A DNA stretch of 64,000 nt from a virus (lineage: Duplodnaviria > Heunggongvirae > Uroviricota > Caudoviricetes): IMG/VR virus record IMGVR_UViG_2703718815_000003; one strand, 5' to 3'. Each line of letters starts with the position of its first letter. The stretch's first letter is position 1. This document shows, piece by piece, positions 2,453 to 60,642 of this stretch. The position numbers and the translations under genes are program-made. The notes under the pieces were generated by a model. It made no database searches, was not told where the DNA came from, and saw only the letters and a list, made by a program, of their open reading frames with translations.

Positions 2453-2513
2453 GTGTTTTTCTCTTATCGTTTAGTTACTACATTCTTACACAAATTAAGT
2501 AAGTATTTACCTA

Positions 2514-4199
2514 TCATTTAACGCATTTGAAAACGTATACGCTGACTGTGATCCCTGTGTCTTCAAACTCGTTGGTAAACGACTTCCCTCTGGCATAAAC
2601 GTAATTATCCATCGTCATCCAGTCCAGTATTGGCGCAGTGCCCGGCAATACTGCTACAAGACGCCCGCCGACTTTCAGATGCCCCAGCGCAGCCAGCGTG
2701 TGCTCTCTATGACGACCAAGCGAGTACGGCGGGTTCATAACGATTTTGTCGAACTGATAACCTGCGTTGTCCTCAGACCACTTTATGAAGTCGCAGCAAA
2801 TCGTGTTCGTATACCCTTTTCCAAGCAGGATATCAGCGAAGAGAGGTGCGATTTCTATGCAGGTAACATCTTCCAGATCGGCGTTAATATAGGCCAGAAG
2901 ATCCCCACGTCCGGCTTGAGGCTCCAGCAGCTTCTCACCAGGCTTCAATTCAGTGGCTCTGGCAACGTACTCAGCAATCAAGCGTGGGGTAGGGTAGAAC
3001 TGGTGTGATTTTGTATCCGGTATTAAACCGGTAGCCACAATCGTATTTAGCGTATGGCCGATGTCATACGGGAACTGCCAGTGCTTTTTCTCCTGCACGC
3101 CGCCAATGAAGCTCAGTGTGCGCTCAAGCTCTTCCACCTGCGACTTCTGGAGAGCTGAATCAGAGAAGTACCATACGCCTTTGTCTTTGCTCAATCGCCC
3201 GTCACGAAGCGCAGTGCGAACCGGCACGGAGATCGTCTTCTGGATTAACCCGAACTGCTTTGGTGCCCGTGTTTTTGGCGCAGTTCGGCATGGCGCGGGG
3301 ATTGCAGCAGGCATACTGTAAGCCAGCACCTCATTCAACTTCCAGGCCACGTCAGGATGTATTTCAAAGTGAACGTTGCCGTTCTTGAACATCTTCACGC
3401 GCATCAGATTTCCATCGACGTTCATCCAGTCACCGGTCTGGCAGTCGTTTGCTCGATACGCAGCTGATAGCACCTCAGCAGTGCGGTTGATGGTAATAAA
3501 TTCTTTGTGCGCGAAGAAATGAAGCAAGACACGCAGATCGTCGATGTAGTCCTCTTTGCGATAGTTCACGCTAACGCTGTCCCGCCAGAAATCAGAAATG
3601 CAGTCAGCGATTATCAGACGCTCGCTGAAACCGTTTGTCTTATTTGTCTTGTGCGCAGGACTCAGCGCCTTAAACAAGCCATACACGCGCTCAGAGAGAT
3701 ATTTGTGCCTGTCATTCAGCAAATTAAGCATCGTGGGTATGACCGTTTCTGCTTTGAACTCCGGTACACCAACGAACTCTTTAACCTTCATCTGGTAGCC
3801 GGTTCTGTCAGTTTTGATGACTTCCTGTTTGCCCTCTATAAACTGCTCGCGCCACTCATCTCGACGGGAAGCTGGCATGATCAGCAAAACGTTAGTCATG
3901 TCCGTGACCTTCCTCCAGTACTCGGCCCAAATATTCTGTTTCACCCATTCCAGATCGACTTTATCCAACCAACCTCGATTTAAACGCGAGCGATCTTCAT
4001 CTGGTCGATGGTTTAGTCTCAGCAGGCGATTAATCATGTTGTGGCGTTCGTCGCCATAAACGAAGTCGTGAACCTGATACATGAAGGCGATCTCTTTCTC
4101 GCACTCGGCCACAATTTCGTGGATGACGTTCATTTCCTGCCGATAGTCGATAGCAGTGTTTGAGTTGGCATCGTCGATGATGGAAAGGGCTGTATTCAT
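2514..4199 (-). CDS. DNA N6-adenine methyltransferase with large N-terminal domain of unknown function
   Basis: C-terminal ~190 aa carry FYPTP, LEPQAGRGDL (AdoMet-binding) and NPPY catalytic motifs; N-terminal ~370 aa unassigned. Confidence 0.6.
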   Translation of the reverse strand: MNTALSIIDDANSNTAIDYRQEMNVIHEIVAECEKEIAFMYQVHDFVYGDERHNMINRLLRLNHRPDEDRSRLNRGWLDKVDLEWVKQNIWAEYWRKVTDMTNVLLIMPASRRDEWREQFIEGKQEVIKTDRTGYQMKVKEFVGVPEFKAETVIPTMLNLLNDRHKYLSERVYGLFKALSPAHKTNKTNGFSERLIIADCISDFWRDSVSVNYRKEDYIDDLRVLLHFFAHKEFITINRTAEVLSAAYRANDCQTGDWMNVDGNLMRVKMFKNGNVHFEIHPDVAWKLNEVLAYSMPAAIPAPCRTAPKTRAPKQFGLIQKTISVPVRTALRDGRLSKDKGVWYFSDSALQKSQVEELERTLSFIGGVQEKKHWQFPYDIGHTLNTIVATGLIPDTKSHQFYPTPRLIAEYVARATELKPGEKLLEPQAGRGDLLAYINADLEDVTCIEIAPLFADILLGKGYTNTICCDFIKWSEDNAGYQFDKIVMNPPYSLGRHREHTLAALGHLKVGGRLVAVLPGTAPILDWMTMDNYVYARGKSFTNEFEDTGITVSVYVFKCVK

Positions 4200-4302
4200 A
4201 ATTGCACCATTAAGAAGTGATTTGTTTAATGGTGCAATTATTTCAAAAATGAAAAGGTACTAAATAGAAATAAACAGGCAATCCTTCAAATAAAGGCATT
4301 GG

Positions 4303-4974
4303 CTAATCATACTTGGAGGTATTTATCACCAGAATTTTGTTTGTATAAATCTTCTTAATATCCCATGTGACATTACCGGAATACCATTGACCGTTATATA
4401 CTTGGTTTCCAGTTGCACCTGTCATTGTTACATAGACAGGTCTGTCGTAATCGGTTCGTCTATAGTTATATACTCCAACCATAGCAGGCATTACCGCACA
4501 TGGATACCCCATATCTATTGTAAATTGAGGGTCAGAAATAGTGATAAGTTTCGCATCAAGGGGCATCATCTCACCGTGATACACCATTGCGCCTGCGCTG
4601 TTATACATGGCAATGCCATAGCCAGAATGTGGTAACACCATATCAGAAAAAGCATAAACTGTTATTGTTCCGGGGCTACCATTTACCTGATGCAATCTGA
4701 GAGCATTGTATCCGTTACTATGCTCATGAATAAACATCATGTTCGCCTTATTACTGCTTTTTATGAAAAAAAAACATGATTTGTTTGATGGGATTGATGT
4801 TTGAAAAACAGAACCTTTAGATGTAGACATTGTCCCTTTATTAATCAGATTTTGCGGAGTAAATTCTGGACTCATCCACAAACTTCCATCTGATTGAGTA
4901 ATTGACATCCCGAACATAATTATCCCCAGTATGTGTATATGTAAGAACCAAGCCCCGTATATAAATTTGACCAA
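4303..4974 (-). CDS. hypothetical protein (AT-rich gene; start uncertain, may begin at internal Met at 4917)
   Basis: 223-aa ORF, low GC, overlaps upstream ORF by 55 nt in another frame. Confidence 0.3.
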   Translation of the reverse strand: MVKFIYGAWFLHIHILGIIMFGMSITQSDGSLWMSPEFTPQNLINKGTMSTSKGSVFQTSIPSNKSCFFFIKSSNKANMMFIHEHSNGYNALRLHQVNGSPGTITVYAFSDMVLPHSGYGIAMYNSAGAMVYHGEMMPLDAKLITISDPQFTIDMGYPCAVMPAMVGVYNYRRTDYDRPVYVTMTGATGNQVYNGQWYSGNVTWDIKKIYTNKILVINTSKYD

Positions 4975-5201
4975 CTAACCGTATTTCCATTAATAGTAAC
5001 ATTTGGAACAGGTAAATTGATGTAGTTGTCGTTGTTAAGAGGCATTAATGACCACACGGCATGTAGTGATTTACCCGGTGGCGGATTAGAGTACGTCTTA
5101 GAGCCTGATGACGCCGTAAATCGATCAAGAAAAAAAATAGGTGTAAGGAAGCCAGTAACGTTAATTCCTTTATTGTTGTAAATCCCTGTACCGTATGACA
5201 T
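4920..5201 (-). CDS. hypothetical protein (AT-rich)
   Basis: 93-aa ORF; GGGTGA-like RBS upstream of ATG at 5201. Confidence 0.3.
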   Translation of the reverse strand: MSYGTGIYNNKGINVTGFLTPIFFLDRFTASSGSKTYSNPPPGKSLHAVWSLMPLNNDNYINLPVPNVTINGNTVSWSNLYTGLGSYIYTYWG

Positions 5202-5255
5202 TTTTCACCCTTGTTTTTATCAACACAATATGGCCGATCATGCGGCCATATCAGA

Positions 5256-5825
5256 TCAATTAGAGCTTTGAAAGACTTTGTGTGGTTGTGTTGCGAGGTT
5301 ATGTCGATGGCTTAACTCACGCATCATGTCTTCAAGCCGACTCTTTGTGTCGTCGAGTTGGTCGGCCATTGCTCCCAAAAGCTGACGAACGGCCATCGGA
5401 TCATCGCTGTTTAGTGATGGCATTTTATAACCCGCCTGAGAAGACATAAGATTGAACGCAGACATCAACATCGTTAGAGAGGATTTAAGCCCAGCAATTT
5501 CACGATCTTTGCTGGCAATAATCGCCTCACTCTTGTTAGTGTCATCAGTTCGTTGAGTCTCGCTCACCATATCCAAAGTCGCCTGCAACTTATCAGCGCG
5601 CTCTTTTTCAGCAAGATAATGAACACCGAAATGATGTGCTAAAGCTACAACCTGAGTTGGCTCTTCAAAGGTGGACTCAAAATTAAGTGCTGTAACCACT
5701 CTCTCAAATATGGAAACGTCTTCTATTCCTCGAAGAATGGCTAACATTTTGACCAGTTCATTAGCATCCATTTCTTCGAATAAGGCGTTTTGTTCATCAG
5801 CTATCGCTTTGCATTTCTTGCACAT
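5256..5825 (-). CDS. hypothetical protein
   Basis: 189-aa ORF; AAACAAGTTGTTT palindrome 20-30 nt upstream of start. Confidence 0.4.
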   Translation of the reverse strand: MCKKCKAIADEQNALFEEMDANELVKMLAILRGIEDVSIFERVVTALNFESTFEEPTQVVALAHHFGVHYLAEKERADKLQATLDMVSETQRTDDTNKSEAIIASKDREIAGLKSSLTMLMSAFNLMSSQAGYKMPSLNSDDPMAVRQLLGAMADQLDDTKSRLEDMMRELSHRHNLATQPHKVFQSSN

Positions 5826-6122
5826 GTGTTTTTCCTAATGCTTAAACAAGTTGTTTTCTTATTGGCTTTATTGTGATGTGGCATAAAAGGGGAGCAAGCT
5901 AAACGTAAAGGTGCAAACTCTCTATTTCGGTCAACGAAACACAAGGGCCATTTGGCCCTTGTCATTAACACGTTGCTTTACGGACTAGCGGATAAGCGAA
6001 GTAGATCGCCAGACCAATGAGGACGCCATCAGAAATGACAGACATCATCTTTCCCGTAAAATCCACCAACACCGCCATCACCAGAAGAGCAATGACGATC
6101 ACAAGCCGGAATCTCTCAAGCA

Positions 6123-6548
6123 TTAGAGATAAGCATCCAGTGACAACTGAAGCGCCTGGGCGATCTTTTTCAGTGCCTGCTCTTCTTGTTCACCAATGCC
6201 GTCCTGATCGGCAATATCAAGGCACAGACACAGAACATCGACCGCCTCTGGAGTACCCGCAATATCAGACAGCTCACGAATAGCCTGTGCATTAGCAGAA
6301 CGAGGGGACGCTTCGTAACGAGCACGGATATTGGCGCTCATTTGGGCAATTTCACCAGCAAACGGAGAAAACGCAGGCAGAGCTGCAATTGTCTTCTCAA
6401 GAATGGCAATTTCTTTTGCGTCACATGTGCCGTCGGCATAGGAGATCATGTACGCGCCCCACACGGTGGCCTCAACCGCATCACGGTTCTCCATTTTTTT
6501 GACTTCGATAACAGCTTTACGAGTTTTCTTTTTGAAGAAACCTAACAT
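6123..6548 (-). CDS. TerB-like domain protein
   Basis: 141-aa ORF; YADGTCDAKEIAILEK and C-terminal acidic helices resemble the TerB/DjlA-N fold; AGGAAA RBS. Confidence 0.45.
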   Translation of the reverse strand: MLGFFKKKTRKAVIEVKKMENRDAVEATVWGAYMISYADGTCDAKEIAILEKTIAALPAFSPFAGEIAQMSANIRARYEASPRSANAQAIRELSDIAGTPEAVDVLCLCLDIADQDGIGEQEEQALKKIAQALQLSLDAYL

Positions 6549-6641
6549 GTGCTTTCCTTTTATTATTTGTCAAAACAAGTTGTTTTCTAATTACATAAAT
6601 TGCTTACGCAGAGATGGTCAATGCATATGCACTAACAGCCG

Positions 6642-6830
6642 TCAGAAATAACCAAGTACCGAACCAACTGGAAAAACAAAAATCCCAACTACACGAGCCA
6701 AGGTCATGCCAGCCTGAAACTGGAGATCGCCAGAGCAAACAAGTTTTATAATGTTCGATACCCAACCGGCGGCCATAAGGGCAAGAATTGCCAGCCAAAT
6801 TTTTCCAAAGTGATTTGAAAACCAGTTCAT
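6642..6830 (-). CDS. small membrane protein
   Basis: 62-aa ORF with two hydrophobic helices. Confidence 0.3.
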   Translation of the reverse strand: MNWFSNHFGKIWLAILALMAAGWVSNIIKLVCSGDLQFQAGMTLARVVGIFVFPVGSVLGYF

Positions 6831-6839
6831 ACAACCGCC

Positions 6840-7334
6840 TTAGTCACAGCATGATCCTGAGTAACTGGATGAACTTGAGGTATCGCATCCACCGCCATCC
6901 CATCCAGAGTGACAGGACGCTCCACTGGAGTGGTGGTAATTGTCGTCGACGAAGGTGTGGTGATGGATGAATCCGGCATCAAAAGGCTCTGACCGGCTGG
7001 AACGGCTACCGTCGCCAGTGAAACTATAATGAGAACGTAGGCCATTGGTTTCAGCCTCTTTCTTTGAAAATTTTCCATTCGAACTGTCCTTGTTGTTTTT
7101 CTCCTTCACTAAAGGCCGTGCATTTTTCGCTTCGCGTGAAGAGCCAGAGGCAACAATCGCCCCCACGTTCGCAACAACTGACGCTTGATTATCTAAACGT
7201 TCATTCAGCAACCGAACGGTAGTCTCTAGTTCTTCAAGGCGTGACATAACACGACCGCTAAATAATTCGGCCAAAATTTGACGTAAAGAACGAGGGCGTT
7301 TAGTTACAGAAGTGAAATAGGTTTGACGTGCCAT
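6840..7334 (-). CDS. hypothetical protein (C-terminal half low-complexity; gene model uncertain)
   Basis: 164-aa ORF; N-terminal coiled-coil-like, C-terminal S/G/H/C-rich; overlapped by an alternative-frame ORF 6827..7078 that has a signal-peptide-like N-terminus. Confidence 0.3.
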   Translation of the reverse strand: MARQTYFTSVTKRPRSLRQILAELFSGRVMSRLEELETTVRLLNERLDNQASVVANVGAIVASGSSREAKNARPLVKEKNNKDSSNGKFSKKEAETNGLRSHYSFTGDGSRSSRSEPFDAGFIHHHTFVDDNYHHSSGASCHSGWDGGGCDTSSSSSYSGSCCD

Positions 7335-7354
7335 GTGGACTCCATCCAGTGTCA

Positions 7355-7385
7355 GAAAGAGTTGCGGCTGGCGATTGCCAGCCGC
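7355..7385 (-). terminator. stem-loop, candidate intrinsic terminator downstream of rnhA
   Basis: gcggctggc-gatt-gccagccgc 9-bp stem; flanked by T/A-rich sequence. Confidence 0.35.
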
Positions 7386-7482
7386 CTTTCTCGTTCCATC
7401 CTGGAACTGTGTCTTACCGACACATTGTCATCCTGACGCCGATAAGATACATGATTTAAAATGATAGGTAAACACTTACTTA

Positions 7483-8073
7483 CTATTTATTATAAACAAA
7501 ACCAATATCTTTCTTGTGAGGCATATCTGCTGCTGAAAAAGCTGCGATCTTCGCGAGTCGATCACATATTTCATTTTCACGATGCCCGGCGTGACCTTTA
7601 ACCCACTTCCAGCGAACATTATGTCGACTTGCGGCCTCATCCAGACGCTTCCACAGATCAACATTCTTTACCGGTTTTTTGTCAGAAGTCATCCATCCAT
7701 TGCGTTTCCACCATTTCATCCACTGTGTCATGCCGTTTTTCAGATACTGGCTATCAGAGTGCAAAATAACGTTGCATGGATATTTCAAACGCTCCAGCCC
7801 GATAAGTGCCCCCATCATCTCCATGCGGTTATTGGTGGTGCTATGAAAACCATCTGAGAACTCGCGTTCCTCACCACGATACTGGAGAACTATACCGTAA
7901 CCGCCCGGGCCACCCGGATTTTTAAGGCAAGAGCCATCACTGAAGATTTTCACGGTTTTAAGCTGGGGATTGAACTCTACGACAGGCGTTGTGGAATTGG
8001 TGCGGGGAGAATTTTTGTTTTTGGCTTTTTTGCGAGTTTTTTCTTGCGATCGGGCTGGTGTCTTCGTCGTCAT
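7483..8073 (-). CDS. rnhA: ribonuclease HI
   Basis: [47 protein letters not shown] motifs; start set at internal ATG 8073 with AGGAG RBS (ORF track extends to 8160). Confidence 0.85.
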
Positions 8074-8658
8074 ATAAACTCCTGAATCAAGCGCCGCGCC
8101 GATTTTTTTTCCTCGCGCGTGCGCACACGCGTGCGTGTTAATAATTATTAAAATAAACAAATTACTTCCCAGAACAGGTTTTTATAAACCTGAACTGAAC
8201 GAACGAAGTGAGTGAAGTTCACCTCGAACGAAGTGAGAGGTTGTCTTTTCAGGTAATACTCTCCCAGGGAGGTGAGTATAAAAATCCCTCACCAACCTGG
8301 TCGTTTCATAACCTGAAAAGTTATGGTCTAAGTCTACTGCCAGCTTAGACTTGGGAAGTTATGGATGACAGCACCCCAGAACCGAGATCTTCCCACACTT
8401 TATGAAGGGGAGTACTGGATTCAACCTCTCGAAACACCCCAGACTCGACAATCATAAAGTGACCCTTGTCTCCGCTCACTTTGGTTCCCCCTTCCCCGAC
8501 ACCTAAACGGCACCAGTTCTACGCTGGTAGTGAGCTTTTTTAAACCTGACGCCAGTGACGCTTACCCCCACCCATCAGGTCGAGTCTCCAGTCTACGACT
8601 GGAAACTATCAGATCTTAGCACTTACAATTCACTTTATGAATAGTTTGTACTTATCTA

Positions 8659-8913
8659 TCATTGTGATTGATTATTTTCTCTACCATGTAGTTGAACATT
8701 CAAGGCAAACACCTCATTGATCAACTCACCTAAAAGCTGTTCAACAAGTTCGCGATGCTCGCCAAGATGCAAGCACTTAATTGCCCATTCGTACAAGTTG
8801 AAAGCCTGCTCACGATCTTTCATCATTTCACGAGCCTGGGCCAGAAAATCGCTCTCTACGAGCGCAACGACATTAGTCGGGTATGACATGTTGGTTTCCT
8901 TAAAGTGGTTCAT
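8659..8913 (-). CDS. hypothetical protein
   Basis: 84-aa ORF. Confidence 0.35.
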   Translation of the reverse strand: MNHFKETNMSYPTNVVALVESDFLAQAREMMKDREQAFNLYEWAIKCLHLGEHRELVEQLLGELINEVFALNVQLHGRENNQSQ

Positions 8914-8994
8914 AAAATCGATTTTAAAGCGTCTGGGAAGGGGTTCTAGTGGATTCTGTAGTGATGTTCAGGTCTGGAGTCTCTGATACAAAAC

Positions 8995-9052
8995 AGCCTG
9001 CTTCCGTATATTAATAATTAATATGTAGTTATTTATATATACAGAAGCAGGC
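8995..9052. repeat. 57-bp palindromic element, copy 1 (cctgcttccgtatat / AT-rich spacer / atatacagaagcagg)
   Basis: 15-bp inverted repeat with one mismatch; near-identical element at 54318..54372. Confidence 0.6.
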
Positions 9053-9074
9053 TAATTACAGACGCCAGAACAAA

Positions 9075-9668
9075 CTAAGCAGCCTTCTTTGATGGTCTTT
9101 TTTTCCTGATCACATTCGCAGGATCATACCCTCCCAGACTTTTCATGACGTCCAAAGGGATCTTGCTTATAGAGTGCCCAGCGTCCTGACAGAATCCTCG
9201 AAAAACAACGAGCATACTGCCACCTGGGTTGATGTTTACTTCTACCTGACCCAGATTGACGTCAGGCTCGACAAACGCTACGCGGCCACCAGACAGAATA
9301 ATCGTCTCATTCGCACACTCTGTTGCACGCTCATACCACTTTGTATCTAGGGATTGAGGAATTAGCATCACTGTTGTAACTCCGCGAGCCTGCTCACGTA
9401 TAGCCGCATCAATCCAGGGGGAGATTTTGGAGTAGGGTGGATTGAGGAAGGCAATTGTACCTGGCTGTCCCCATTCAGATTTCAAAGCATCACGCTCAAC
9501 GCCTATGAAATTAGGCAGCTTTGCATTGTCCTTGTTGCAGGCAACGTCAACATCAAATGTCACTCCAAGATAACGTTGAATGGCAGAAAACAGCCAGTCA
9601 GGTGTTCTCCAGAGGTCACGAAGAGAGTTGTCGCGCTTTCGCTGTTTGATTTTTTCGGCTGCAATCAT
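9075..9668 (-). CDS. DNA N6-adenine methyltransferase, small phage type
   Basis: 197-aa ORF with NPPY catalytic tetrapeptide (AFLNPPYSK) in a small single-domain protein. Confidence 0.65.
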   Translation of the reverse strand: MIAAEKIKQRKRDNSLRDLWRTPDWLFSAIQRYLGVTFDVDVACNKDNAKLPNFIGVERDALKSEWGQPGTIAFLNPPYSKISPWIDAAIREQARGVTTVMLIPQSLDTKWYERATECANETIILSGGRVAFVEPDVNLGQVEVNINPGGSMLVVFRGFCQDAGHSISKIPLDVMKSLGGYDPANVIRKKRPSKKAA

Positions 9669-9733
9669 CTTCTTTCTCGATAGGTAAGTAAATACCTATT
9701 TTTGCATTTGATTTTATGTCTGGCAATCAAATA

Positions 9734-9778
9734 AAACGCGCCAGAAATGCAAACGAGAAGCTCTCTGGCGCGTTTTTG
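9734..9778. terminator. long hairpin with T-runs on both strands (candidate bidirectional terminator)
   Basis: aaacgcgccaga ... tctggcgcgttt 12-bp stem followed by TTTTT; second hairpin at about 9779..9812. Confidence 0.5.
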
Positions 9779-9851
9779 TGGTGCTGGGTATGTGATTGGC
9801 TTACCCAGCACTATAAAGCTCTCTATGGGCTTTATTTTCAGTAGGGGAACG

Positions 9852-10661
9852 TCATCCAATAGTGTACTCCGCGACAAACTTCTTAACGATCGGTGATTCT
9901 TCGTTCAATGTTAGATTTCCACCGTCTCTAACGGCAATTCCTGTCGCTGGAAATACAGCCATCATTTGCCCAGCCTGAGTTGACGCAGTGTTAAGCGGAT
10001 ACGGTTTTTCTGGATTGCTCATTAAAGCAATCTTAATACTATTACTTGTAGCCTTCTTTTCTGTGAGAAGGTGTCTCATGGAAATTACCGTGTAAACACT
10101 AATATCTGGACCTCCGCTAAACCAATTAAGAAGGTTTAATATCTTATCCTTTGCTTTGACAGGCGCGTTATCGTAAGCGTCTAAAAAAATATCTTTCTCT
10201 AAACCCGCTTTATTGAAAAACGCATCATCTTTATCACTTAGAGCAAAACGAGGACCTCTTGCAGTACGCGCTTTTTTATTTGTGTTGCTATCATTTGACT
10301 GTTGAACTTTTAATTCATCATTAATCTCAACACACCCTTCAACCTCGATGATCCCCAACTGTTCTGGTTCGTTTTCGGCAGCTTCACCACTTTCAGCGTT
10401 AATTACGTTTATAGGCTCATGCGCTAACTCCAACTCATTTAAAGCTGAGCTGAAATCACCTGCTTTTTCTTCATTGAACAGTTCTTCGGCAACATCATCA
10501 GAACTCATGGCTACGCCAGCATCTAGGCCGAGCAGCAGATCGTCAATATCATCAGTATTTTCAACCTGTGCAGCTTTTTTTACTGGTTCATCAAGTGATT
10601 GCAACATGGCTGCCAGCTCGTCCAGATCATCATTTGTCATTACATTTTCAACCGAACTCAT
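9852..10661 (-). CDS. acidic hypothetical protein
   Basis: 269-aa ORF, D/E-rich N-terminal half. Confidence 0.4.
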   Translation of the reverse strand: MSSVENVMTNDDLDELAAMLQSLDEPVKKAAQVENTDDIDDLLLGLDAGVAMSSDDVAEELFNEEKAGDFSSALNELELAHEPINVINAESGEAAENEPEQLGIIEVEGCVEINDELKVQQSNDSNTNKKARTARGPRFALSDKDDAFFNKAGLEKDIFLDAYDNAPVKAKDKILNLLNWFSGGPDISVYTVISMRHLLTEKKATSNSIKIALMSNPEKPYPLNTASTQAGQMMAVFPATGIAVRDGGNLTLNEESPIVKKFVAEYTIG

Positions 10662-10819
10662 GTAAGTCTCCTTCTGTTTGGTTACATTTGCGTTTCGATG
10701 GCTACATTTTGACTAAACCTATCAGGCGGAAAAGTATTAAATACAGGCAGGAAATGATTGAAAGGCGACTGTTCTTTAAAAGAAAGCCTACTTTAAACTT
10801 TTTAAAGTAGGCTTTTGTT

Positions 10820-11377
10820 TTACACAATTTCAGAGGGTAATTTAAAAAATCCGTACTTATTACGTGCCTTAAAGAAGCATTGCATCATTAAGTTTGTGTC
10901 ATATAAGGCACTATGTGCTTTGGCATGATCGTATATAAAGCCAAGAGAGAAGGCCAACTCTTCAAGGCGGGGACGTTTACCGTCTTCTGTGGCCCACAAT
11001 CCCGATAACATAGTATCTATAACAGGAACTTCTGGCAGTCTTACTCCATACCCTGAAAACTCGTGTCGAATAAATGGTATATCAAATGCTTCGCCGTTAT
11101 GAGCAACCCACACACTACATGCCCCCATATAAGCGCCAATTTCGCTGGCATGATTTGACAACAAAGGTTCAGCTGCGAGCTGTTCCAATGAAATGCCATG
11201 AACGGCTTGAGCTTTCGGATCTATGTTTCTGCGAGGGTTAAAACGCATCTCCAGACTATCAATATGTCTCTGTGTCTCCAGTTCATAGCGGGTAATTGCG
11301 ATTTCAATAATTTTATGACCAGCAAGGAAATCCAGTCCCGTAGACTCGATATCGATGCCTGCAACAATCGTTGTCAT
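10820..11377 (-). CDS. DnaQ-like DEDDh 3'-5' exonuclease
   Basis: GIDIESTGL (Exo I), HNGEAFDIPF (Exo II), HSALYDT (Exo III) motifs. Confidence 0.7.
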   Translation of the reverse strand: MTTIVAGIDIESTGLDFLAGHKIIEIAITRYELETQRHIDSLEMRFNPRRNIDPKAQAVHGISLEQLAAEPLLSNHASEIGAYMGACSVWVAHNGEAFDIPFIRHEFSGYGVRLPEVPVIDTMLSGLWATEDGKRPRLEELAFSLGFIYDHAKAHSALYDTNLMMQCFFKARNKYGFFKLPSEIV

Positions 11378-11386
11378 CAGAACTCC

Positions 11387-11806: not shown

Positions 11807-11867
11807 TTTTTATCCTTAACCCATTTTGAGAGTTTTATTGTCGCAATGTCGAAGAGGCGAACAATTT

Positions 11868-13446: not shown

Positions 13447-14530
13447 GAATTAAAACCTCGTCCCATTTGAAATCATCCAACTCTGACCATTCATGAGGGA
13501 AAATAACGACCGGATCTGAATGCTCTGGAGCCTGTCGTTTCATTAGCTCACACACACCTTCCATGTGGTTGTTGTACAAATGCACGTCAAAGCCAAAATG
13601 CACAAATGCACCGGCCATGTGACCCGTAATCTTCGCGAGAAAATGAGTGAGAATGCCATAGCCAGCAATATTGAATGGCATACCAACAAAAGTGTCTACG
13701 CTACGCTGTACGAGGCAGGAGTTGAGGATGCGTTTGGGGATTCCAAGTTCATCCAGTTCAGCTTCAGTAACACTGCCGTCCATCTCCAGATCGTATAGCA
13801 TCTTGGTGTAGATAGACTCGTAACCGAGGCGACTGTGTTGAAGACCAATGTCAGTTGCCATCGTTAAACGGGTTTCAAAATCCAGCTCACGACTCCACAA
13901 AGAGAAGACAAAGTGGCAAGGTGGCAGTTTCATATCCTCAAGCTCGCCTACGTTCCATGCGTTAAGCATGATGCGACGATCGGTAGGGTTCGTGCGCAGT
14001 GTATCGACAATACGCTGTAGCTGATCGATTTCACGGGACAGCACTACGCGATCTTCACTGATACCCAGGTATCCCTCGACTTTGTACCCGCGTTCACGGA
14101 AAGTAGCGATCTTGCTCAGATATTCACTATGGCTCACGATGCGGGTATCTTCCCATCGACGCCACTGCTTACCGTAAACCGGCCCCAAATCGCCATTCTC
14201 ATCGGCCCATGCATCCCAAATCTTAACGCCGTTATCCTTGAGAAATTGGATGTTGCCCGTGCCTTTCAGATACCACTCAAGTTCGACAAGCAGTGGCTTA
14301 AGATTTACCGCCTTTCCAGAAATAAGCGGCACAGTCCCACCAGTAAGCATGTAGTAAGAGGGAACGTAGCAGGTGCTTAAAGTACCAGTGCCTGTGCGAT
14401 CATCAGCCTGCACGCCGCTTTTAAGCACCGTCTCAATAACTTTTGCATACGATGCGTTTGTTACCTGACCGTTCGTATGCTCACGATTCAAAAGGAGTGA
14501 CACAAAAACCTCACAAAGATAAGTAACCAC
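13400..14530 (-). CDS. thyA: thymidylate synthase (ThyA type, with insertion)
   Basis: DRTGTGT, WADENGDLGPVYGKQWR, RRIMLNAWNVGELEDMKLPPCH, HLYNNH, YDPLSWIKVPVAV match ThyA; ~45-aa insertion after catalytic Cys. Confidence 0.85.
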   Translation of the reverse strand: MVTYLCEVFVSLLLNREHTNGQVTNASYAKVIETVLKSGVQADDRTGTGTLSTCYVPSYYMLTGGTVPLISGKAVNLKPLLVELEWYLKGTGNIQFLKDNGVKIWDAWADENGDLGPVYGKQWRRWEDTRIVSHSEYLSKIATFRERGYKVEGYLGISEDRVVLSREIDQLQRIVDTLRTNPTDRRIMLNAWNVGELEDMKLPPCHFVFSLWSRELDFETRLTMATDIGLQHSRLGYESIYTKMLYDLEMDGSVTEAELDELGIPKRILNSCLVQRSVDTFVGMPFNIAGYGILTHFLAKITGHMAGAFVHFGFDVHLYNNHMEGVCELMKRQAPEHSDPVVIFPHEWSELDDFKWDEVLILGYDPLSWIKVPVAV

Positions 14531-14580
14531 TTATTAATTACGTGAGTTTACATTTATTGAGAGAACAAGACCAGACAGAT

Positions 14581-14606
14581 AAAAAAATGGTGGCCATAGG
14601 CCACCA
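14581..14606 (-). terminator. intrinsic terminator
   Basis: tggtggcc-ata-ggccacca hairpin preceded on plus strand by A7 (U-tract on minus strand). Confidence 0.6.
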
Positions 14607-14673
14607 AAACGAATAGTCATTCCAGAGTTTTATTACGCATGTTAAATATACACAGATAGATAACTACCTACAA

Positions 14674-15543
14674 TTATTTTTTGATCATTCCGTACATTGC
14701 TGAGGCTTTAGCTTGCTCAACAAAGGAGGATAAATCGACATCACTATAGGTTGGAGACTTCAGAATCTTTCCATCGGAAATTCGAAAACCGATCATCTTA
14801 TCGGTGCCATCAGCATGGCGGAATCCCAGATCTGAAGAGTCGTATTTGCAGTTGGCCACAGCCTGGCGACGTTCCTCAACATCAGCAGGCCATAATTTTG
14901 TCATGTTAGACCGATGAATTTCGCCAACCAGCTCGACGACATTGATACCGAGGAAATCAGCCAGTCGATAAGTCATCATGCACGCCACATAGATTTTGTT
15001 CATTACACGGCGCAGTTCCTGAATCAGCTCAGAATCCTTAACAGTCTTCTTCTCAAGTTTATCTGCCAGCTCTTCGAGCATACATGACGCCTCACGAGCT
15101 TCCTGAAATGGCATTGCCATATCATCGAAAACAGTGTTACCGGGCACAAAAATTGTCTGCATAAAGCGATCAATGCTCTGTTCCTGCGTGTAATAGGTCA
15201 TGCCGGTAGAAATACCACCTTTGATGGAGACCATCGTACCAACACCAACGTATAAAAAGTCGGCCATTGCATCCAGCAGTTGCTCAATATCCCCATTCAT
15301 TGCGGCTGGAATACCTTCCACTACAGCTTCTTCATGAATCAGGCTTGCACGGAGACGAAGCAGCTCTGGTGTCGGCATAACGCGTCTCGGATGCTGGAAG
15401 AGTTCATGAAACTGATCGACCATCTTGTAAATACTTTCAGTGGCTACACCATGGCCTTCATGCAACTCATATGGTTCTGGCTTAAATCCAATGAGTCGAT
15501 CGGTGGCAAGTTTCAGGTGGTCAGTCAGTTTGGTAAAGTTCAT
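14674..15543 (-). CDS. MazG-like nucleotide pyrophosphohydrolase (tentative)
   Basis: start moved to internal ATG 15543 to avoid overlap with nrdB; all-alpha sequence with EExxE / D-rich pairs (IHEEAVVEG...DIEQLLDAMAD). Confidence 0.4.
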   Translation of the reverse strand: MNFTKLTDHLKLATDRLIGFKPEPYELHEGHGVATESIYKMVDQFHELFQHPRRVMPTPELLRLRASLIHEEAVVEGIPAAMNGDIEQLLDAMADFLYVGVGTMVSIKGGISTGMTYYTQEQSIDRFMQTIFVPGNTVFDDMAMPFQEAREASCMLEELADKLEKKTVKDSELIQELRRVMNKIYVACMMTYRLADFLGINVVELVGEIHRSNMTKLWPADVEERRQAVANCKYDSSDLGFRHADGTDKMIGFRISDGKILKSPTYSDVDLSSFVEQAKASAMYGMIKK

Positions 15544-15620
15544 GCTAGTTTTGTTCCTTCTTAATTCTTGTGATCCATTGTGGCCCAGCGTTGCCAGGCC
15601 ACATAATGCTTTGTATCGGT

Positions 15621-19224: not shown

Positions 19225-19258
19225 ATGTTAATAGATAAGCACTTACCTATCAATGAAA

Positions 19259-23802: not shown

Positions 23803-24056
23803 GTATTTTTCCTTTGTGGTTATTTTGATACAAATTCTAAGAGCAATGAGGAGGTAAACAACTATGCATAACGGTATGTTAGGAATGAAACGAGCGCCTT
23901 AATATACAAAATTTATAAGTAAGTATATACCTATTTATCGTGGCGCAACTTTGCTTGTCTGTATGACTAAAAATAAGACAGGATCACTGTAGAACGCTAT
24001 GAGAGCTATTTTGAGGGGACGTAGATTCTATCTACGCCAATATACGATCTGGAGGG

Positions 24057-27244: not shown

Positions 27245-27459
27245 GCTGCCACCTCTTTGATTACATCAAATGCTGAATTAAATACGAGCACGATAGCCAA
27301 AGCGTTTATGACTACGTCGTGCACCGGGGAAAAGACTTTACGAATGACACCAGTGAAAATGCAGTCGATGACAAAAGCTATTGAAACGATGAGTAACAAG
27401 TATTCAATAAAAATCTTCATGATAGGTAGATACTAACTTATATAAATTTTACTGTAAAC

Positions 27460-29342: not shown

Positions 29343-29403
29343 GTGTTTTCCTATGTGGTTATTGTGTGCTAATGATAAGTAAGTGCTTATACATTTTCAA
29401 TAT

Positions 29404-34077: not shown

Positions 34078-34194
34078 GTGTTTCTCCTTGTTGTGATTTG
34101 GCCGATGGCGCTATGCGCGTTGGGCTTTCGTTCATTCGTGGCTCTTTCGAGCTGTTCAATGATAGATCAGTACTTACTTATTATCTATCAAAAA

Positions 34195-39686: not shown

Positions 39687-39781
39687 GCGTTTTTCCTTTG
39701 TTTTCTAATGAGCGTTCAACTTCTTATATAAATATATCATTATCTATCGTAAGTGGTTACTTATCGTTAAGGCTGTTTTGT

Positions 39782-42377: not shown

Positions 42378-42405
42378 TTTACAACCCTAACCTTTGATGT
42401 AATAT
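42378..42405 (+). promoter_or_regulatory. candidate sigma70 promoter for the XRE regulator gene
   Basis: TTTACA - 16 nt - TAATAT, followed by palindrome GGTAAGCACTTACC before the start codon. Confidence 0.4.
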
Positions 42406-42451
42406 CGGTAAGCACTTACCAGAGAGAATTGAACGCGCAAAGGTTGTAACC

Positions 42452-44397: not shown

Positions 44398-44668
44398 TTC
44401 ACCTCGTGCAACTGCTGTTCATTAACGATGATTGTGTCAATTTCGTAGCCGTGGATGCGTGGCTTTGGCTTCACTGCCTGACGAGCTGCGCGACGCGCCT
44501 GTTTACGTTTGTTTCCCATATAGAGTCCTTTCAAGTGAGTAAGTGTCGTGACTATAGCTAAAATGAATAGGTGAGTCATTACCTATTTAATGTGTTTGGT
44601 TACTAAGCAGAAATGGCTTTGTGAGGTTGACACATTAGAAACGGCAAGACAGCTTTAAACTAGCTGAA

Positions 44669-46605: not shown

Positions 46606-46610
46606 TAAAT

Positions 46611-46685
46611 TGGCGATGGTGGGTGGATTCGAACCACCGACCAGTTGGTTAACAGCCAACTGCTCTACCGCTGAGCTACACCATC
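46611..46685 (-). tRNA. tRNA-Asn (anticodon GUU), CCA encoded
   Basis: manual fold: acceptor GATGGTG/CACCATC, anticodon stem GTTGG/CCAAC with loop CTGTTAA, T-loop TTCGAAT. Confidence 0.75.
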
Positions 46686-47463
46686 AATTCGGCACTGCCA
46701 GTATTTATTACTCAACAGTGCCAATCGCGACGGTTTAGTTTCTGCCAGGAAACGCACCGCTACTTGCACTTTTCGTTAGTGCCAGACGCTTTCGACTTCG
46801 CTCAATAGTAGAAGGCAAAATCTTTAAGTAGATGATGTTTCTGAGGACAGCACCTACTTTGTAATTTATACAATGTGATGTATGGAATCATTTGTTGTGA
46901 AAACAGGCACCAATGGCAACAGTGGTTAAACCTACACAACAATCCTGTCTTCACAACGTTGAGGCCACTACTCCGATTGAATGTTTGCCCAACATGTTAC
47001 ATATCAACGCTCGCCGGTATCTCTGTGAATAGAACCTTAGAATTGATAAAAATGTAATGGCCTCAACGTTGTGTGCTGGCTAACCATACCAGCCGGGCTA
47101 CGTCGCCGCTTTTTAACCCAGTATAAACGACATAATTGAACAAAATGACGTAACAGGATGGGCGGTCAGAGGCTAAGAATCCGGGAGTCATATGGAGTTG
47201 AAAATATACCGACCGCCCATTCTGTTACTTCATCGGAGGGAACACTCATGTTCCCTCCTGCGTTCTGCAATCACACTCGCTCAGTGTGTCCCATTTCGGT
47301 AACGAGGCTGGAAACTGACCTCGCTGGTGTTTGGCTTATTAGGCTACTGCCAGATAGACTTCTTCGTTTGCACTTGTATTTAAGTTCAAACAGTCGCGTC
47401 TCAACGAAAACAAAGTCATCTTATACATAAAAGATAAGTAAGTAAATACTTATTATTGTGTTT

Positions 47464-49913: not shown

Positions 49914-49968
49914 AAATAATCTTGTACTTACCTATCGTTATTTGCGTAAAAAACGACGCGCGGAGAGA

Positions 49969-50745: not shown

Positions 50746-50820
50746 ACCAACTCCTAGCTAACAGATGAAAGTATTCTTACAGAAAGATAAGTAATCATCT
50801 ACTTATTTTAGCGGCACTTG

Positions 50821-54217: not shown

Positions 54218-54317
54218 CTGGTAGGTAGTTACTTACTTATCACAATGAGCTGATGATAGCGATTGGTGGCAGTTTTTGGAAGTGGAAACGGAAGGGAGTT
54301 GTTCTGGTGGGTATCTT

Positions 54318-54372
54318 TTGAAAGACCTGCTTCCGTATATTTAATAAGTTACTTATTATTTATATACAGAAA
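54318..54372. repeat. 57-bp palindromic element, copy 2
   Basis: cctgcttccgtatat ... atatacagaaacagg; near-identical to 8995..9052. Confidence 0.6.
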
Positions 54373-54386: not shown

Positions 54387-56090
54387 TTAATTATTAAGCA
54401 ATCTGCTCACACGTAGTTTGTTAAGACTTGATCTAGAGGCCAGTTTCGTTAATGCACCTATTGCTTTATTCGTGATTTTTTGCTGTTCTTCTGTTAGTTC
54501 TTGCATACTTTTGAATCTGAGCAACCCCTTTCTCACTAAATCCAAAGCATCCTGATTGCGGGATAATATCCACTTTAAATAATCATCTTCAGAGAAACTG
54601 TTAAGATATGCTATGTCACTATGATTAAATTTGCCTTCAATTATTTTGTATAAAACATTCTCTAAATTAGTCTCTTCAGGCTTCTTATTCATCAATTTTT
54701 TTTGAATTAGCAGACCTAACTTTTCGTTACCAAATATCTCTACATACAAATTCCGAAAAGCAGTATAAGCATCATCTTGGCTAACAAAGGCATCTGCATA
54801 TGCCTCTATATAACTATCACAATCAATCTCCAATCTATTTAAGATATCAATCAAGCCTATGAAGTGAGCAACAGGTATGTGTGAAAGATTGTCGTTAATT
54901 ACACATTTTATCTTAGAAATAAACTCAGATTCATTGTCCTTGAATGAGTCACTAAAAATATCCCAAACATTGTTAACCTCACATAAAGCCTTGTGTTCTT
55001 TATATTGTTTATTTTTTTCTTCTATTATACCTCGAATATTGCTTTCAGTAGAAAGATAACCATTCTTGAGATAAAAATCTATGTCATCATCGAAAGCAAT
55101 TTCCGCTCGTTCATAAATAATATCAAGACTATTAATAAATGAATATACAGAATCATCCTTTTTATCATCTAACATGTAATCAAATACATGTATGTTTTTA
55201 ATTGATTCTTTAAACAAGGCATAATCAACACCTGGAACACCAGAATAGTAAACCACTGAAAACAGAACCAATCTATTGATAAAACTTTCTCTAACCTTAT
55301 CCTCTGCCAAGCTTAGCTCATTCCTAAGATTAACCAGAGATGTTTTTATTTTATTTAATATACGGATATTTTTAATGCCTAAGTCATTTGCTAAGACTTT
55401 TAACAAAAGAAAATCAGAATCAGTTTCATAAAAAACTTTACGTAAGTTCTTCTCAGGCGTAGGATCGTATTTTATTTCGACATCAATTACTTTTTCTCTG
55501 TACTCTAAAAACTGTTTTTTTGCAGTTTCATCATGTAAATTATCTTCATTTAAAATTAGAACAACTTTGCAGCCTTTTCTTCTTGCCAATTCATCAATTA
55601 CCCCCATAATTTCTTTAACTTCTAGCGAATTACCTTTTCTTTCAACATCATCAATACAAACCAAATAATTATTAACAAATTTATACTCAAGAGATGACAG
55701 CAGGTTATCTGTTTTGAACCCAAAAAAATCGTTCTTTCCGAAATGTATTAAAAATTTTGACAAGGAGTTGTATTTCAACCATCCCAAAAACCCATTTCTA
55801 TAACGAATCATAGTTCGATCCGTTTCAGATAAAATTAGTTCTTTATATTTCTTTTCATTAATTGGTGTGGCACAATGATAAAGAGCTTTTTTAATATCAC
55901 CAATAGAGTTAACCCCAAACAAAGAAACATACGAATATGCATTAAAATCTAATCCTTCAGAATGCTTAGTATAAAAACTATTCCAATAATGAGTTTTACC
56001 AACGCCCCAATCTCCTTTTATGACGGCAACCCGATGATCTGAAACTAGAAAATTTTTTAGAAATGATTCTATCGATTCCATTAGTATCAA
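54387..56090 (-). CDS. KAP-family P-loop NTPase
   Basis: KAP-type Walker A GDWGVGKT and Walker B-like LVCIDDVER; gene markedly more AT-rich than neighbours. Confidence 0.6.
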   Translation of the reverse strand: MILMESIESFLKNFLVSDHRVAVIKGDWGVGKTHYWNSFYTKHSEGLDFNAYSYVSLFGVNSIGDIKKALYHCATPINEKKYKELILSETDRTMIRYRNGFLGWLKYNSLSKFLIHFGKNDFFGFKTDNLLSSLEYKFVNNYLVCIDDVERKGNSLEVKEIMGVIDELARRKGCKVVLILNEDNLHDETAKKQFLEYREKVIDVEIKYDPTPEKNLRKVFYETDSDFLLLKVLANDLGIKNIRILNKIKTSLVNLRNELSLAEDKVRESFINRLVLFSVVYYSGVPGVDYALFKESIKNIHVFDYMLDDKKDDSVYSFINSLDIIYERAEIAFDDDIDFYLKNGYLSTESNIRGIIEEKNKQYKEHKALCEVNNVWDIFSDSFKDNESEFISKIKCVINDNLSHIPVAHFIGLIDILNRLEIDCDSYIEAYADAFVSQDDAYTAFRNLYVEIFGNEKLGLLIQKKLMNKKPEETNLENVLYKIIEGKFNHSDIAYLNSFSEDDYLKWILSRNQDALDLVRKGLLRFKSMQELTEEQQKITNKAIGALTKLASRSSLNKLRVSRLLNN

Positions 56091-59418: not shown

Positions 59419-59740
59419 TTTTTACGCCATACGCGGCTAACCCCAAAAGCAGTGCGGTAATAATGAACGACGTTATTTTAGAAACAATGCCGCCAAAGAA
59501 CCCACTTGAGATGGAATCTAACCGGTTAAGGAGTTTGTCCAGATTGGAGTGTTGAATACTATGTTGCGCCGGGGTCATATCACCAAAGTAGGTTTTCAGC
59601 TGATCATTGACCTCCTGGCCAATTTCTTCACGTAGCTCTTTACCTAATTTGCCGACAACTTCACGCGCAACGATAGCGGCAATGCGCTCTACCTGCTCTG
59701 GCGTTACGCCTGCCATCTCGTTCGACATTATTTCCTCCAT
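59405..59740 (-). CDS. tail-anchored small membrane protein
   Basis: 111 aa, single C-terminal TM helix. Confidence 0.3.
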   Translation of the reverse strand: MEEIMSNEMAGVTPEQVERIAAIVAREVVGKLGKELREEIGQEVNDQLKTYFGDMTPAQHSIQHSNLDKLLNRLDSISSGFFGGIVSKITSFIITALLLGLAAYGVKSGLQ

Positions 59741-59802
59741 GAATCGTCAAATCGGGATGGCGGTTTTATATCATAAAACGCCCACACTTGGTAGGTAAGT
59801 AC

Positions 59803-60642
59803 TTACACATGAGCGCCGTAAATTGCCCCAACTTTAGTCCAAGTTGGAGCATTACCAGTAACAGCTTTACCAGCTGCTCCGCCGTTATATTCTGTACCGT
59901 TACCTTGAGTATTACATCTTCCTCCAGCAGCACCGACATTACCACCCGAACCGCCTGTATATGCACTAAGAGACCCCTCACCAACAGATCCTTTACCAGG
60001 AGCGGAAATAGTACCAGCAGTTGCACCGGAACTCATATGAGAGGAAGACCCACCAGCACCGAATGGGCGACCACCGCCACCACCAAATATTAGTTTACCC
60101 CTGTTACCGCCGCCACCGCCGCCGCCACCTCCAGCGATTGCACCATTATTCGTAATACGCAAGCGTGTACCGATGCCATTATTAATTGCGTTACCACCAG
60201 CAGCACCGGCAGCGTTACTACCACCATTGCCACCGCGTCCATAGACAGTCACACCTGCGTTGATTACAAGGCTGATATAAGAGTTGGTAAGTGAACTCGG
60301 GAAATCTAAACATGGCACGCCGCTACTGGACGACACCAGATCCCCTGTAATGGTAACAACGACTGGCGTCGCCCCCTGGGATTTTAAATAGTTGATCAGT
60401 GTGTCTTTGTTGTAGTTATGATTCGCACCGATGCTGTACTGAACTTCTTTAGATCGCCCGGCCATTTGAGACATTGAACCAGCCGCTGGCAGTTGCACCG
60501 CCGTTCGAGCCGCACTCATCCATCTCTGGCCTGTCACACTGACAGCCGAAGACCCAATCCAACCGGGAACACCGACAATTGGCACATCTAATCTCCTTTT
60601 TGATGTGAATATCCTGAATTGGTGAGGGTGGCCCCTCACCAT
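59803..60642 (-). CDS. glycine-rich protein, possible tail-fibre adhesin/accessory protein
   Basis: 279 aa with poly-Gly stretches (GGGGGGGGGN, GGGGGRPFGAGG) immediately downstream of tail fibre gene. Confidence 0.4.
   Translation of the reverse strand: MVRGHPHQFRIFTSKRRLDVPIVGVPGWIGSSAVSVTGQRWMSAARTAVQLPAAGSMSQMAGRSKEVQYSIGANHNYNKDTLINYLKSQGATPVVVTITGDLVSSSSGVPCLDFPSSLTNSYISLVINAGVTVYGRGGNGGSNAAGAAGGNAINNGIGTRLRITNNGAIAGGGGGGGGGNRGKLIFGGGGGRPFGAGGSSSHMSSGATAGTISAPGKGSVGEGSLSAYTGGSGGNVGAAGGRCNTQGNGTEYNGGAAGKAVTGNAPTWTKVGAIYGAHV

Follow-up and report, generated by a model that had tools for sequence, protein, structure and literature searches.

A palindrome repeated through the intergenic gaps of an SSU5-like phage-plasmid as the candidate operator of an XRE-type repressor

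The window and its repeated element

We analysed a stretch of 64,000 nucleotides from the IMG/VR virus record IMGVR_UViG_2703718815_000003, referred to here as the window, in which a 22-bp palindrome recurs in the gaps between genes. The window is 97-99% identical to the Escherichia coli phage-plasmids CMS-2020a, PhiR41_1 and Cyrano (pLF82) and about 78-80% identical to Salmonella phage SSU5 and to Klebsiella phage-plasmids. It is an SSU5-like phage-plasmid of E. coli, of the SSU5/pMT1/pHCM2 family. Gene names were obtained by mapping the Cyrano annotation onto the window, which includes genes for replication, recombination and nucleotide metabolism, an immunity and integrase cassette, a tRNA cluster, partition and toxin-antitoxin genes, lysis genes and the end of the tail-fibre genes. 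Nearly all genes lie on the minus strand, and coding sequence accounts for 87.8% of the window and intergenic sequence for 12.2%.

The repeated element has a perfectly palindromic 22-bp consensus with the halves GATAGGTAAGT and ACTTACCTATC (written whole, GATAGGTAAGTACTTACCTATC), set in AT-rich flanks (aAT...ATt). An earlier sequence-only reading of this DNA had described a recurrent quasi-palindrome of about 20 copies, and this description proved to be sound. The 12-mer GATAGGTAAGTA occurs 20 times at up to two mismatches, against 3.2 +/- 1.6 expected, and 0 of 100 shuffles reached 20. The full 22-bp element, allowed up to 8/22 mismatches, matches 35 windows compared with about 7 in Markov shuffles, and the copies align to one 22-bp consensus. 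When a good copy was defined as one with no more than 7/22 mismatches or a position weight matrix (PWM) score of at least 16, the tally for the window was 17-18 strong copies and three weak ones (Table 1). Sixteen of the 19 positions listed in the sequence-only reading carry a good copy and the other three (39744, 42403 and 54336) a weak or partial one; the good copy at 14518 had been missed, and a doubtful AT-rich copy at 9016 was also unlisted. The remark that the orientation of the motif varies is meaningless for a palindrome and reflects only which half is better preserved.

The placement of the copies is highly selective. Sixteen of the 18 strong copies are intergenic, in 12.2% of the window (binomial p=3e-13), which bears out the near-exclusive intergenic location proposed before. 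There are 47 gaps of at least 20 bp, and a strong copy occupies 16 of these, or about a third. The proposed distance of 10-120 bp upstream of a minus-strand start is roughly right, the real span being 0 to about 160 bp and, at the copy that precedes the tRNA cluster, 747 bp. A good number of copies instead adjoin the stop codon of the preceding gene (-9 to +17 bp).

Table 1. Palindrome copies in the window and the features of the XRE gene. The strand of a candidate operator copy is given as a point since the element is palindromic; promoters are predicted.
Feature	Position	Strand	Mismatches	PWM score	Context
Candidate operator	2494..2515	.	4/22	29.7	Overlaps DUF4942 stop; 41 bp upstream of Ead/Ea22-like start
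Candidate operator	7463..7484	.	5/22	30.8	Overlaps RNase H stop; hairpin 7364-7385 follows
Candidate operator	8639..8660	.	6/22	22.5	Right half best kept
Doubtful AT-rich copy	9016				
Candidate operator	9679..9700	.	3/22		10 bp upstream of Dam methyltransferase start; overlapped by predicted promoter TTGCCA-17-AAAAAT
Candidate operator	14518..14539	.	7/22	22.5	14 bp upstream of ThyX start
Weaker candidate operator	14655..14676	.	7/22		Overlaps MazG stop
Candidate operator	19230..19251	.	3/22		Between RuvC and NrdA; exactly in spacer of TTGATA-17-TAACAT (score 12.4)
Candidate operator	23914..23935	.	5/22	28.8	Upstream of SbcD
Candidate operator	27421..27442	.	5/22	24.0	Adjoins annotated start of 59-aa gene
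Candidate operator	29374..29395	.	6/22		Downstream of terminator of RecA-like gene; core in spacer of the best predicted promoter, TTGAAA-17-TATCAT (score 14.2)
Candidate operator	34161..34182	.	4/22		Between UvsY and gp32-like SSB gene; predicted promoter TAGATA-17-TATCAT
Weak or partial copy	39744..39765	.	8/22	9-13	Between CobT and CobS-like gene
Predicted XRE promoter	42378..42405	+			-35 TTTACA (42378-42383), 16-nt spacer, -10 TAATAT (42400-42405); read from sequence
Core-only copy, 14 bp, GGTAAGCACTTACC	42407..42420	.			31 bp upstream of XRE start codon
XRE-family helix-turn-helix regulator, 128 aa	42452..42838	+			100% identical to Cyrano CYRAN_45, 'putative repressor'
Candidate operator	44566..44587	.	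5/22	20.0	At start of 61-aa open reading frame, in divergent gap beside plus-strand 373-aa open reading frame
Candidate operator	47433..47454	.	5/22	32.8 (best in window)	Just after three-gene cluster; 747 bp upstream of tRNA cluster
Candidate operator	49915..49936	.	6/22	20.1	One half perfect; 1 bp from annotated start of 160-aa gene
Candidate operator	50786..50807	.	7/22	26.1	Between primase gene and next gene
Candidate operator	54220..54241	.	4/22		Directly upstream of ribosome-binding site of 246-aa gene preceding helicase gene
Weak AT-rich copy, doubtful	54336..54357	.	8/22	10-13	
Candidate operator	59790..59811	.	4/22		Perfect 12-bp core GTAAGTACTTAC; 61 bp upstream of holin gene; overlaps stop of Gp38-like adhesin

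Further copies lie outside the window, among the structural genes. The complete Cyrano genome, rebuilt from loci L001-L004, has 24 strong sites between 2.0 and 84.6 kb, which together mark an 85-kb one-directional array that begins with ParB-like and terminase genes and continues through head, tail, lysis, replication and nucleotide-metabolism genes. Some of these sites occupy tiny gaps, such as the 26 bp between TerL and portal genes or the gap between the MCP gene and its neighbour. The region from 87 to 108 kb, where regulatory and plasmid-maintenance genes lie in mixed orientation, has almost none. SSU5 has 25 strong sites in orthologous gaps, and for a whole genome we estimate about 25-30 copies along the 85-kb lytic array, structural genes included, of which 17-20 fall within the window.

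The motif is also conserved beyond its surroundings. Between the window and SSU5, identity is 85.8% in motif columns, 78.1% in other intergenic sequence and 77.1% in coding sequence, and against Klebsiella it is 80.7% in motif columns compared with 73.6% in comparison columns. Within IMG/VR the perfect extended motif was found in SSU5-like contigs only, and it is therefore no general enterobacterial signal. No paper describing the motif was found in the literature searched, which leaves out most subscription journals.

Symmetry of the half-sites and placement at promoters

Column statistics were drawn from 48 sites pooled from Cyrano and SSU5. The best-conserved positions are A-10, T-9, A-8, G-6, T-5, A-4, A-3, G-2 and T-1 together with their mirror images, and the flanks outside +/-13 hold less than 0.3 bit, are symmetric and carry no directional -35/-10 signal. 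The two halves of a site form 7.9-8.6 of 14 complementary pairs, which is the value obtained when right halves are randomly reassigned among sites (observed against shuffled partners in three genomes: 7.94 vs 8.37, 8.0 vs 8.26 and 8.6 vs 8.56). The halves thus do not covary, as would suit a site for a protein dimer on double-stranded DNA rather than a selected hairpin. On these alignments the palindrome is a pair of independent half-sites, the signature of a symmetric protein dimer.

The same data bear on the possibility that the palindromes are RNA or DNA hairpins, namely intercistronic processing or stabilising stem-loops, terminators or cruciforms. Their palindromic sequence and intercistronic position, often right after stop codons, would suit such a role, and some copies adjoin terminator-like hairpins. 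Nevertheless, we find this explanation scarcely plausible, given that compensatory covariation is absent, with pairing at or below the shuffled-partner expectation in all three genomes, and that the sequence rather than the pairing is conserved. In addition, the stems are AT-rich and loopless, and no T-tract follows them. An Rfam scan of the window returned tRNAs only, with no family match for the palindrome, and the hairpin was rejected on this result and on the lack of covariation between halves.

GC-rich terminator-like hairpins do lie beside several copies, all on the minus strand (19203-19224, 14588-14606, 7364-7385 and about 29405-29428). The order in three of these cases is stop codon, palindrome, hairpin and next gene, and at the RecA-like gene it is stop codon, hairpin and palindrome. 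The hairpin at 14588-14606 separates the copies at 14518 and 14655.

Promoters were called as matches to the sigma-70 consensus only and are predictions from sequence. Near the sites, the best sigma-70-like score in the direction of the genes averages 8.0, against 6.2 for the antisense direction, 5.2 for other intergenic sequence and 3.5 for coding sequence (p=8e-5). Three copies (19230, 29374 and 34161) fall exactly in a 17-bp promoter spacer, and about half of the sites have only a weak predicted promoter. At other sites the right half of the palindrome is itself -35-like (TTTACC or TTTACT), or the predicted start falls within the site. The palindrome centre ranges from about -43 to +16 relative to predicted starts. 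Such a variable offset, combined with symmetric flanks, would be usual for operators and unusual for a promoter that depends on an activator. All of the predicted promoter placements would be repressive, and none indicates an activator working from a fixed position.

Over positions 1-20000 of the window, sigma-70 consensus matches are depleted on both strands (16 vs 30.8 +/- 5.8 in shuffles), and the few minus-strand matches cluster at palindromes.

A promoter of fixed architecture, read by a phage factor or sigma, was dropped as the leading explanation, as the flanks are symmetric and uninformative and the offsets vary. An arrangement of the Lpa type, in which an inverted repeat stands at a fixed distance upstream of a -10 hexamer and makes the promoter directional, was likewise not seen in these flanks. 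One plasmid of Acinetobacter baumannii (CP116441.1) carries an annotated sigma-70 family sigma factor between a MoxR/CobS-like gene and dnaE (L049 3078-3743); no homologue of this gene was found in the E. coli, Salmonella, Aeromonas and Klebsiella loci examined.

The candidate regulator and its predicted action

Relatives from Klebsiella, Aeromonas and Acinetobacter, distant ones with 52-72% portal identity included, keep the layout of the sites and have lineage-specific half-sites. Read from the outer end to the centre, the half-site is ATA(G/A)GTAAGT in E. coli, Salmonella and the main Klebsiella group, ATCAGTAA(a/g)T in Aeromonas, ATTAGTAAGC in A. baumannii p37662RM2d21 and ATCAGTCAGT in the plasmid of A. 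baumannii 2024CK-00546. Since two variants occur in one host species, the family-wide binder would be encoded by the plasmids and not by the host. It is very likely that the sites bind a plasmid-encoded dimeric regulator.

The host protein that these variants speak against is the nucleoid-occlusion factor SlmA, whose sites on the plasmid would tie copy number or lytic replication to the inhibition of division, or which would itself serve as a repressor. The SlmA rule, with G, T, A and G at half-site positions 1, 2, 4 and 5, a purine at 3 and a pyrimidine at 6 (PMC3020112), is fitted by the consensus core GTAAGT-ACTTAC, and position 6 is T in 40 and C in 7 of the phage sites. The G3A variant is bound with a dissociation constant of about 60 nM (PMC3020112). 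Repression of a reporter follows when an SlmA site is set between its -35 and -10 elements, and cells with such sites on a multicopy plasmid are blocked in division (PMC3573117); the plasmid considered here is present at 5.5 copies per cell. Even so, we regard SlmA as a very unlikely binder. The two A. baumannii plasmids have different variants, one of which, GTCAGT, has C at position 3 where a purine is required, and position 3 of the pooled sites is A in 44/48 and never the G of SlmA's selected consensus. The outer arms (ATA/TAT) are strongly conserved beyond the 12-bp SlmA site, and only two copies in the window fit the rule exactly, with five more at one mismatch, although natural SlmA sites such as SBS17 deviate from the rule too. 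Chromosomal SlmA sites lie outside promoters and mostly within genes (only 2/24 are intergenic), and a constitutive host repressor would leave SOS induction unexplained.

Host SlmA was demoted because a single host species harbours both motif variants. A crude local profile and phmmer found no SlmA-like or TetR-like gene on the plasmids, a weak negative because the seed sequences were approximate, and a plasmid-encoded binder of this kind was set aside on that result. The likeness of the motif core to the SlmA rule is probably coincidental. There is a slim chance that the enterobacterial operator core doubles as a functional SlmA site, which would make the prophage a hub or sink for SlmA or let SlmA compete with the repressor. 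About 5.5 plasmid copies with about 30 sites each give a lysogen more such sites than the 24-52 on the chromosome. If SlmA does cross-bind, lytic replication would multiply DNA-activated SlmA and block division without a phage-encoded FtsZ inhibitor.

The DNA-binding candidates common to the E. coli and Acinetobacter lineages are an XRE-type protein, two ParB-like proteins, an 88-aa phrog_900 protein and TerS. Two further Cyrano genes were rejected as offering no obvious candidate: CYRAN_114, annotated as a 'transcriptional regulator', is FljA-like (Flag1_repress), and CYRAN_98 has a Peptidase_S24 domain only. The XRE gene and the adjacent integrase gene are present in essentially all SSU5-like plasmids, with per-genus counts that match those of the portal gene. 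A sequence search of the XRE protein against the PDB gave no match. In LF82 lysogens the XRE gene (CYRAN_45) is expressed 10-fold above the prophage background, and most other Cyrano genes, including most of those that follow the motif, are at background (PMC9928086). The Cyrano prophage in LF82 is maintained at 5.5 copies per cell and is induced 39-fold by ciprofloxacin (PMC9928086).

The promoter of the XRE gene carries its own version of the element. The core GGTAAGCACTTACC lies at about +1 of the predicted promoter and is a putative autoregulatory operator. The arrangement TTTACA-16-TAATAT followed by GGTAAGyACTTACC is kept upstream of XRE in E. coli, Yersinia pMT1 and Klebsiella, and its surroundings diverge. 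In the second of two Acinetobacter plasmids, the region upstream of XRE has three sites of the plasmid's own type, at 3, 5 and 5 mismatches compared with a shuffled mean of 8.3. A site at the promoter of the candidate repressor was thus found in E. coli, Yersinia pMT1, Klebsiella and this plasmid. Between the two Acinetobacter plasmids (L053 and L049) the XRE proteins are 30% identical, the adjacent integrases 98% and the backbones 45-75%, a pattern typical of immunity-gene swapping. In this A. baumannii pair the XRE and integrase genes must be separated by a recent recombination boundary.

On balance, we lean towards the view that the sites are operators of the XRE repressor (42452-42838) and that it acts on them negatively. 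We infer here that a protein binds the motif, that this protein is the XRE repressor and that its binding represses. The sequence-only reading had left the choice between an operator family for one global regulator and a phage-specific promoter element, and had pointed to the XRE regulator as the protein to try in binding assays; of the two options, the operator family is favoured and the promoter element disfavoured. The symmetric halves that do not covary, the undirected flanks, the variable promoter offset and the genes that are silent in lysogens downstream of the motif (PMC9928086) all favour operators, as do the conserved copy at the XRE promoter and the lineage-specific variants, which exclude a host factor.

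Several observations weigh against this assignment. The link between the XRE protein and the motif is circumstantial. E. coli and Klebsiella share the motif yet have different recognition helices (KNANNLSLIKSGK vs KNPNILSLIKKGR). One would look for the strongest operators in the gap that separates XRE from the divergent 70-aa gene; it holds the 14-bp core only and no full consensus site, and in the first Acinetobacter plasmid the best match in the region upstream of XRE is at chance level. All proteins differ from one lineage to the next, and the other candidates are 36-65% identical between the two Acinetobacter plasmids, so that covariation has no power to single out XRE. In addition, about half of the sites have a weak promoter prediction and some gaps are too small for a separate promoter (TerL to portal in Cyrano, 26 bp), and control of early and structural genes by a single repressor would not account for the timing of their expression.

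The gap between XRE and the 70-aa gene also contains a block, GAATACTACTAAAATTTGTATCAATACTGAATACAT (42236-42272), which is kept in E. coli and Yersinia pMT1 and is not the palindrome. Isolated half-sites flank it, GGTAAG at 42230 and CTTACC at 42296. This block may be a leftward early promoter or a second type of operator.

SSU5 itself is instructive. The segment that corresponds to about 41988-46610 of the window is replaced by 63 bp (SSU5 42600-42663, loci L005/L006), a 4.6-kb deletion that removes the XRE and integrase genes, the divergent 70-aa gene, a glutaredoxin gene, the 373-aa plus-strand open reading frame and three of the four tRNAs. SSU5 thus lacks the XRE gene but retains the sites. 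The argument that XRE cannot be the binder, as SSU5 lacks it, was dropped because the XRE-integrase cassette is found in essentially all plasmid forms and SSU5 carries the deletion. SSU5 probably arose from a plasmid prophage that lost its repressor by deletion and became obligately lytic, and such a derivation would bear on its proposed use in biocontrol.

The growth of SSU5 with its sites intact and no XRE gene would also suit binding by some other conserved plasmid protein with a role in lytic growth, either an activator in the manner of P1 Lpa, which would turn each gap into a middle or late promoter, or a ParB-like protein in the manner of KorB and parS. Conservation across lineages extends to the ParB-like proteins, TerS and the 88-aa phrog_900 protein, structural as well as early genes have sites in front of them, and in three lineages (E. 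coli, Klebsiella and Acinetobacter) a site closely precedes the first of the two ParB-like genes with which the array opens. The outer arm of the palindrome, moreover, forms a -10-like TATCAT. We consider such a protein unlikely, though less so than SlmA or a hairpin. There is no fixed -10 spacing and no directional asymmetry in the flanks, a symmetric promoter would fire both ways, and a site at +1 of the promoter of XRE, a gene expressed in lysogeny, would be unexpected for an activator. The ParB-like genes are absent from the list of lysogen-expressed genes (PMC9928086), so their products would not be the prophage silencer.

If the XRE repressor is indeed the binder, its dimer would act on about 25-30 dispersed operators along the 85-kb one-directional lytic array, each in an intergenic gap and on or beside a sigma-70-type promoter, whether over the -35, in the spacer or at the transcription start. 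While the prophage is kept as a plasmid, repressor bound at these sites would block initiation, and possibly read-through from upstream units as well; copies that run into stop codons within tiny gaps would be suited to the latter, stoperator-like role. The many separate transcription units, which serve replication, nucleotide metabolism, recombination, lysis and structure, would be silenced together, and the weaker core-only copy at +1 of the XRE promoter would give negative autoregulation. SOS induction would then remove the repressor and release all units at once. No description of the silencing and lytic switch of SSU5-like elements was found in the literature searched.

The motif therefore offers a testable regulon map of about 25-30 control points with a candidate repressor and a putative autoregulatory site, and the lineage-specific operator variants should define immunity groups. 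SSU5-like phage-plasmids are common and include Yersinia pestis pMT1, Salmonella plasmids and many plasmids of Klebsiella, E. coli, Enterobacter and Acinetobacter. An SSU5-like portal gene is present in 966 PLSDB plasmids, from Klebsiella, Escherichia, Acinetobacter, Enterobacter, Yersinia (pMT1), Salmonella and Aeromonas. Some SSU5-like phage-plasmids are described in the literature as carriers of resistance genes.

Other parts of the element were compared with its relatives. The replication initiator (24903-26117, plus strand), which has a Rep3_N domain, is only about 52% identical to Cyrano RepA between flanking genes that are 98-100% identical, and looks like a swapped replicon cassette; a 579-bp gap (26118-26696) follows it. 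A minus-strand open reading frame of 567 aa (54387-56090) has no Cyrano counterpart and a weak match to the KAP family of P-loop NTPases (E=1e-4), and possibly represents an insertion, between the helicase module and the ParA/RelE genes, of an accessory or defence gene. The 373-aa open reading frame (44669-45790) stands on the plus strand amid a minus-strand region, diverges from the copy at 44566 and has neither a Pfam match nor a Cyrano counterpart. At 59803-60642 (minus strand) lies a Gp38-type tail-fibre adhesin gene (Pfam GP38, E=2e-70), followed at 60652-63966 (minus strand) by a tail-fibre gene with 68% identity to that of Cyrano; by these matches the two are a host-range module unlike that of the closest relative. 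ARAGORN placed four tRNA genes (Ser, Thr, Tyr and Asn) at 46139-46685 on the minus strand, three of which reach the Rfam threshold, and Cyrano is annotated with three tRNAs and SSU5 with one. Beyond the window, Cyrano CYRAN_114 (L004 13781-14302) encodes a full-length FljA-like phase-1 flagellin repressor (Pfam Flag1_repress, E=1e-80), and a plasmid with this gene may interfere with the flagellin expression of its host.

Comparison with known operator networks

In the phage-plasmid P1, the C1 operators are reportedly asymmetric 17-mers, about 17 in number. The likeness lies in a plasmid prophage whose one master repressor is thought to control scattered operators before separate lytic operons and has its own gene within the regulon. 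As expected of such a network, one sequence stands at many prophage loci above chance (20 vs 3.2 in the window, with 24 sites in Cyrano and 25 in SSU5). Unlike in P1, the sites here are palindromes of 20-22 bp, number about 25-30 and punctuate the structural genes too, and the candidate repressor is a small XRE-type helix-turn-helix protein unrelated to C1.

The phiC31 repressor binds conserved inverted repeats, and plasmid RK2/RP4 carries the KorA and KorB operator networks, in which KorB acts at a distance as a ParB-type clamp. These systems resemble the present one in having palindromic operators at many promoters of one mobile element under one or two global repressors. They differ in protein families and hosts, and the ParB-like genes here are apparently unexpressed in the lysogen. 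The structure of KorA with its operator has been described (PMC2665229).

The stoperators of Cluster A mycobacteriophages (L5, D29 and TipsytheTRex) are asymmetric 13-bp sites (PMC9283540, PMC5712189, PMC6550527), bound by a monomer with two DNA-binding domains and active in one orientation to transcription (PMC9283540). Like them, the palindromes number more than 20 and lie for the most part in short gaps between genes, in early and late operons alike, and their consensus varies between lineages. There is also a parallel to the lytic mycobacteriophage D29, which has lost the repressor and kept its stoperators (PMC5712189): SSU5, as a lytic deletion derivative without the repressor, stands to its relatives as D29 does to L5 (PMC5712189). 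Unlike stoperators, however, the sites here are symmetric over 20-22 bp and have symmetric flanks. Repressor bound at stoperators blocks elongation; the copies here that overlap stop codons or fill tiny gaps would be compatible with such a block.

E. coli SlmA sites share a 12-bp palindromic core with the element, and GTAAGTACTTAC of the E. coli lineage satisfies the SlmA specificity (PMC3020112). In contrast to SlmA sites, the element is longer, with conserved outer arms, is almost always intergenic, never has G at position 3 and varies between plasmid lineages within one host.

In sequence terms, the element lacks the feature that defines each of several known classes: the asymmetry of stoperators, the host-constant motif of SlmA sites, the fixed spacing of Lpa-type promoters and the covariation of hairpin repeats. 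It introduces no new principle, as dispersed operator networks are already known from P1, L5-like mycobacteriophages and phiC31. By its sequence and arrangement, the element fits the general class of dispersed repressor operators.

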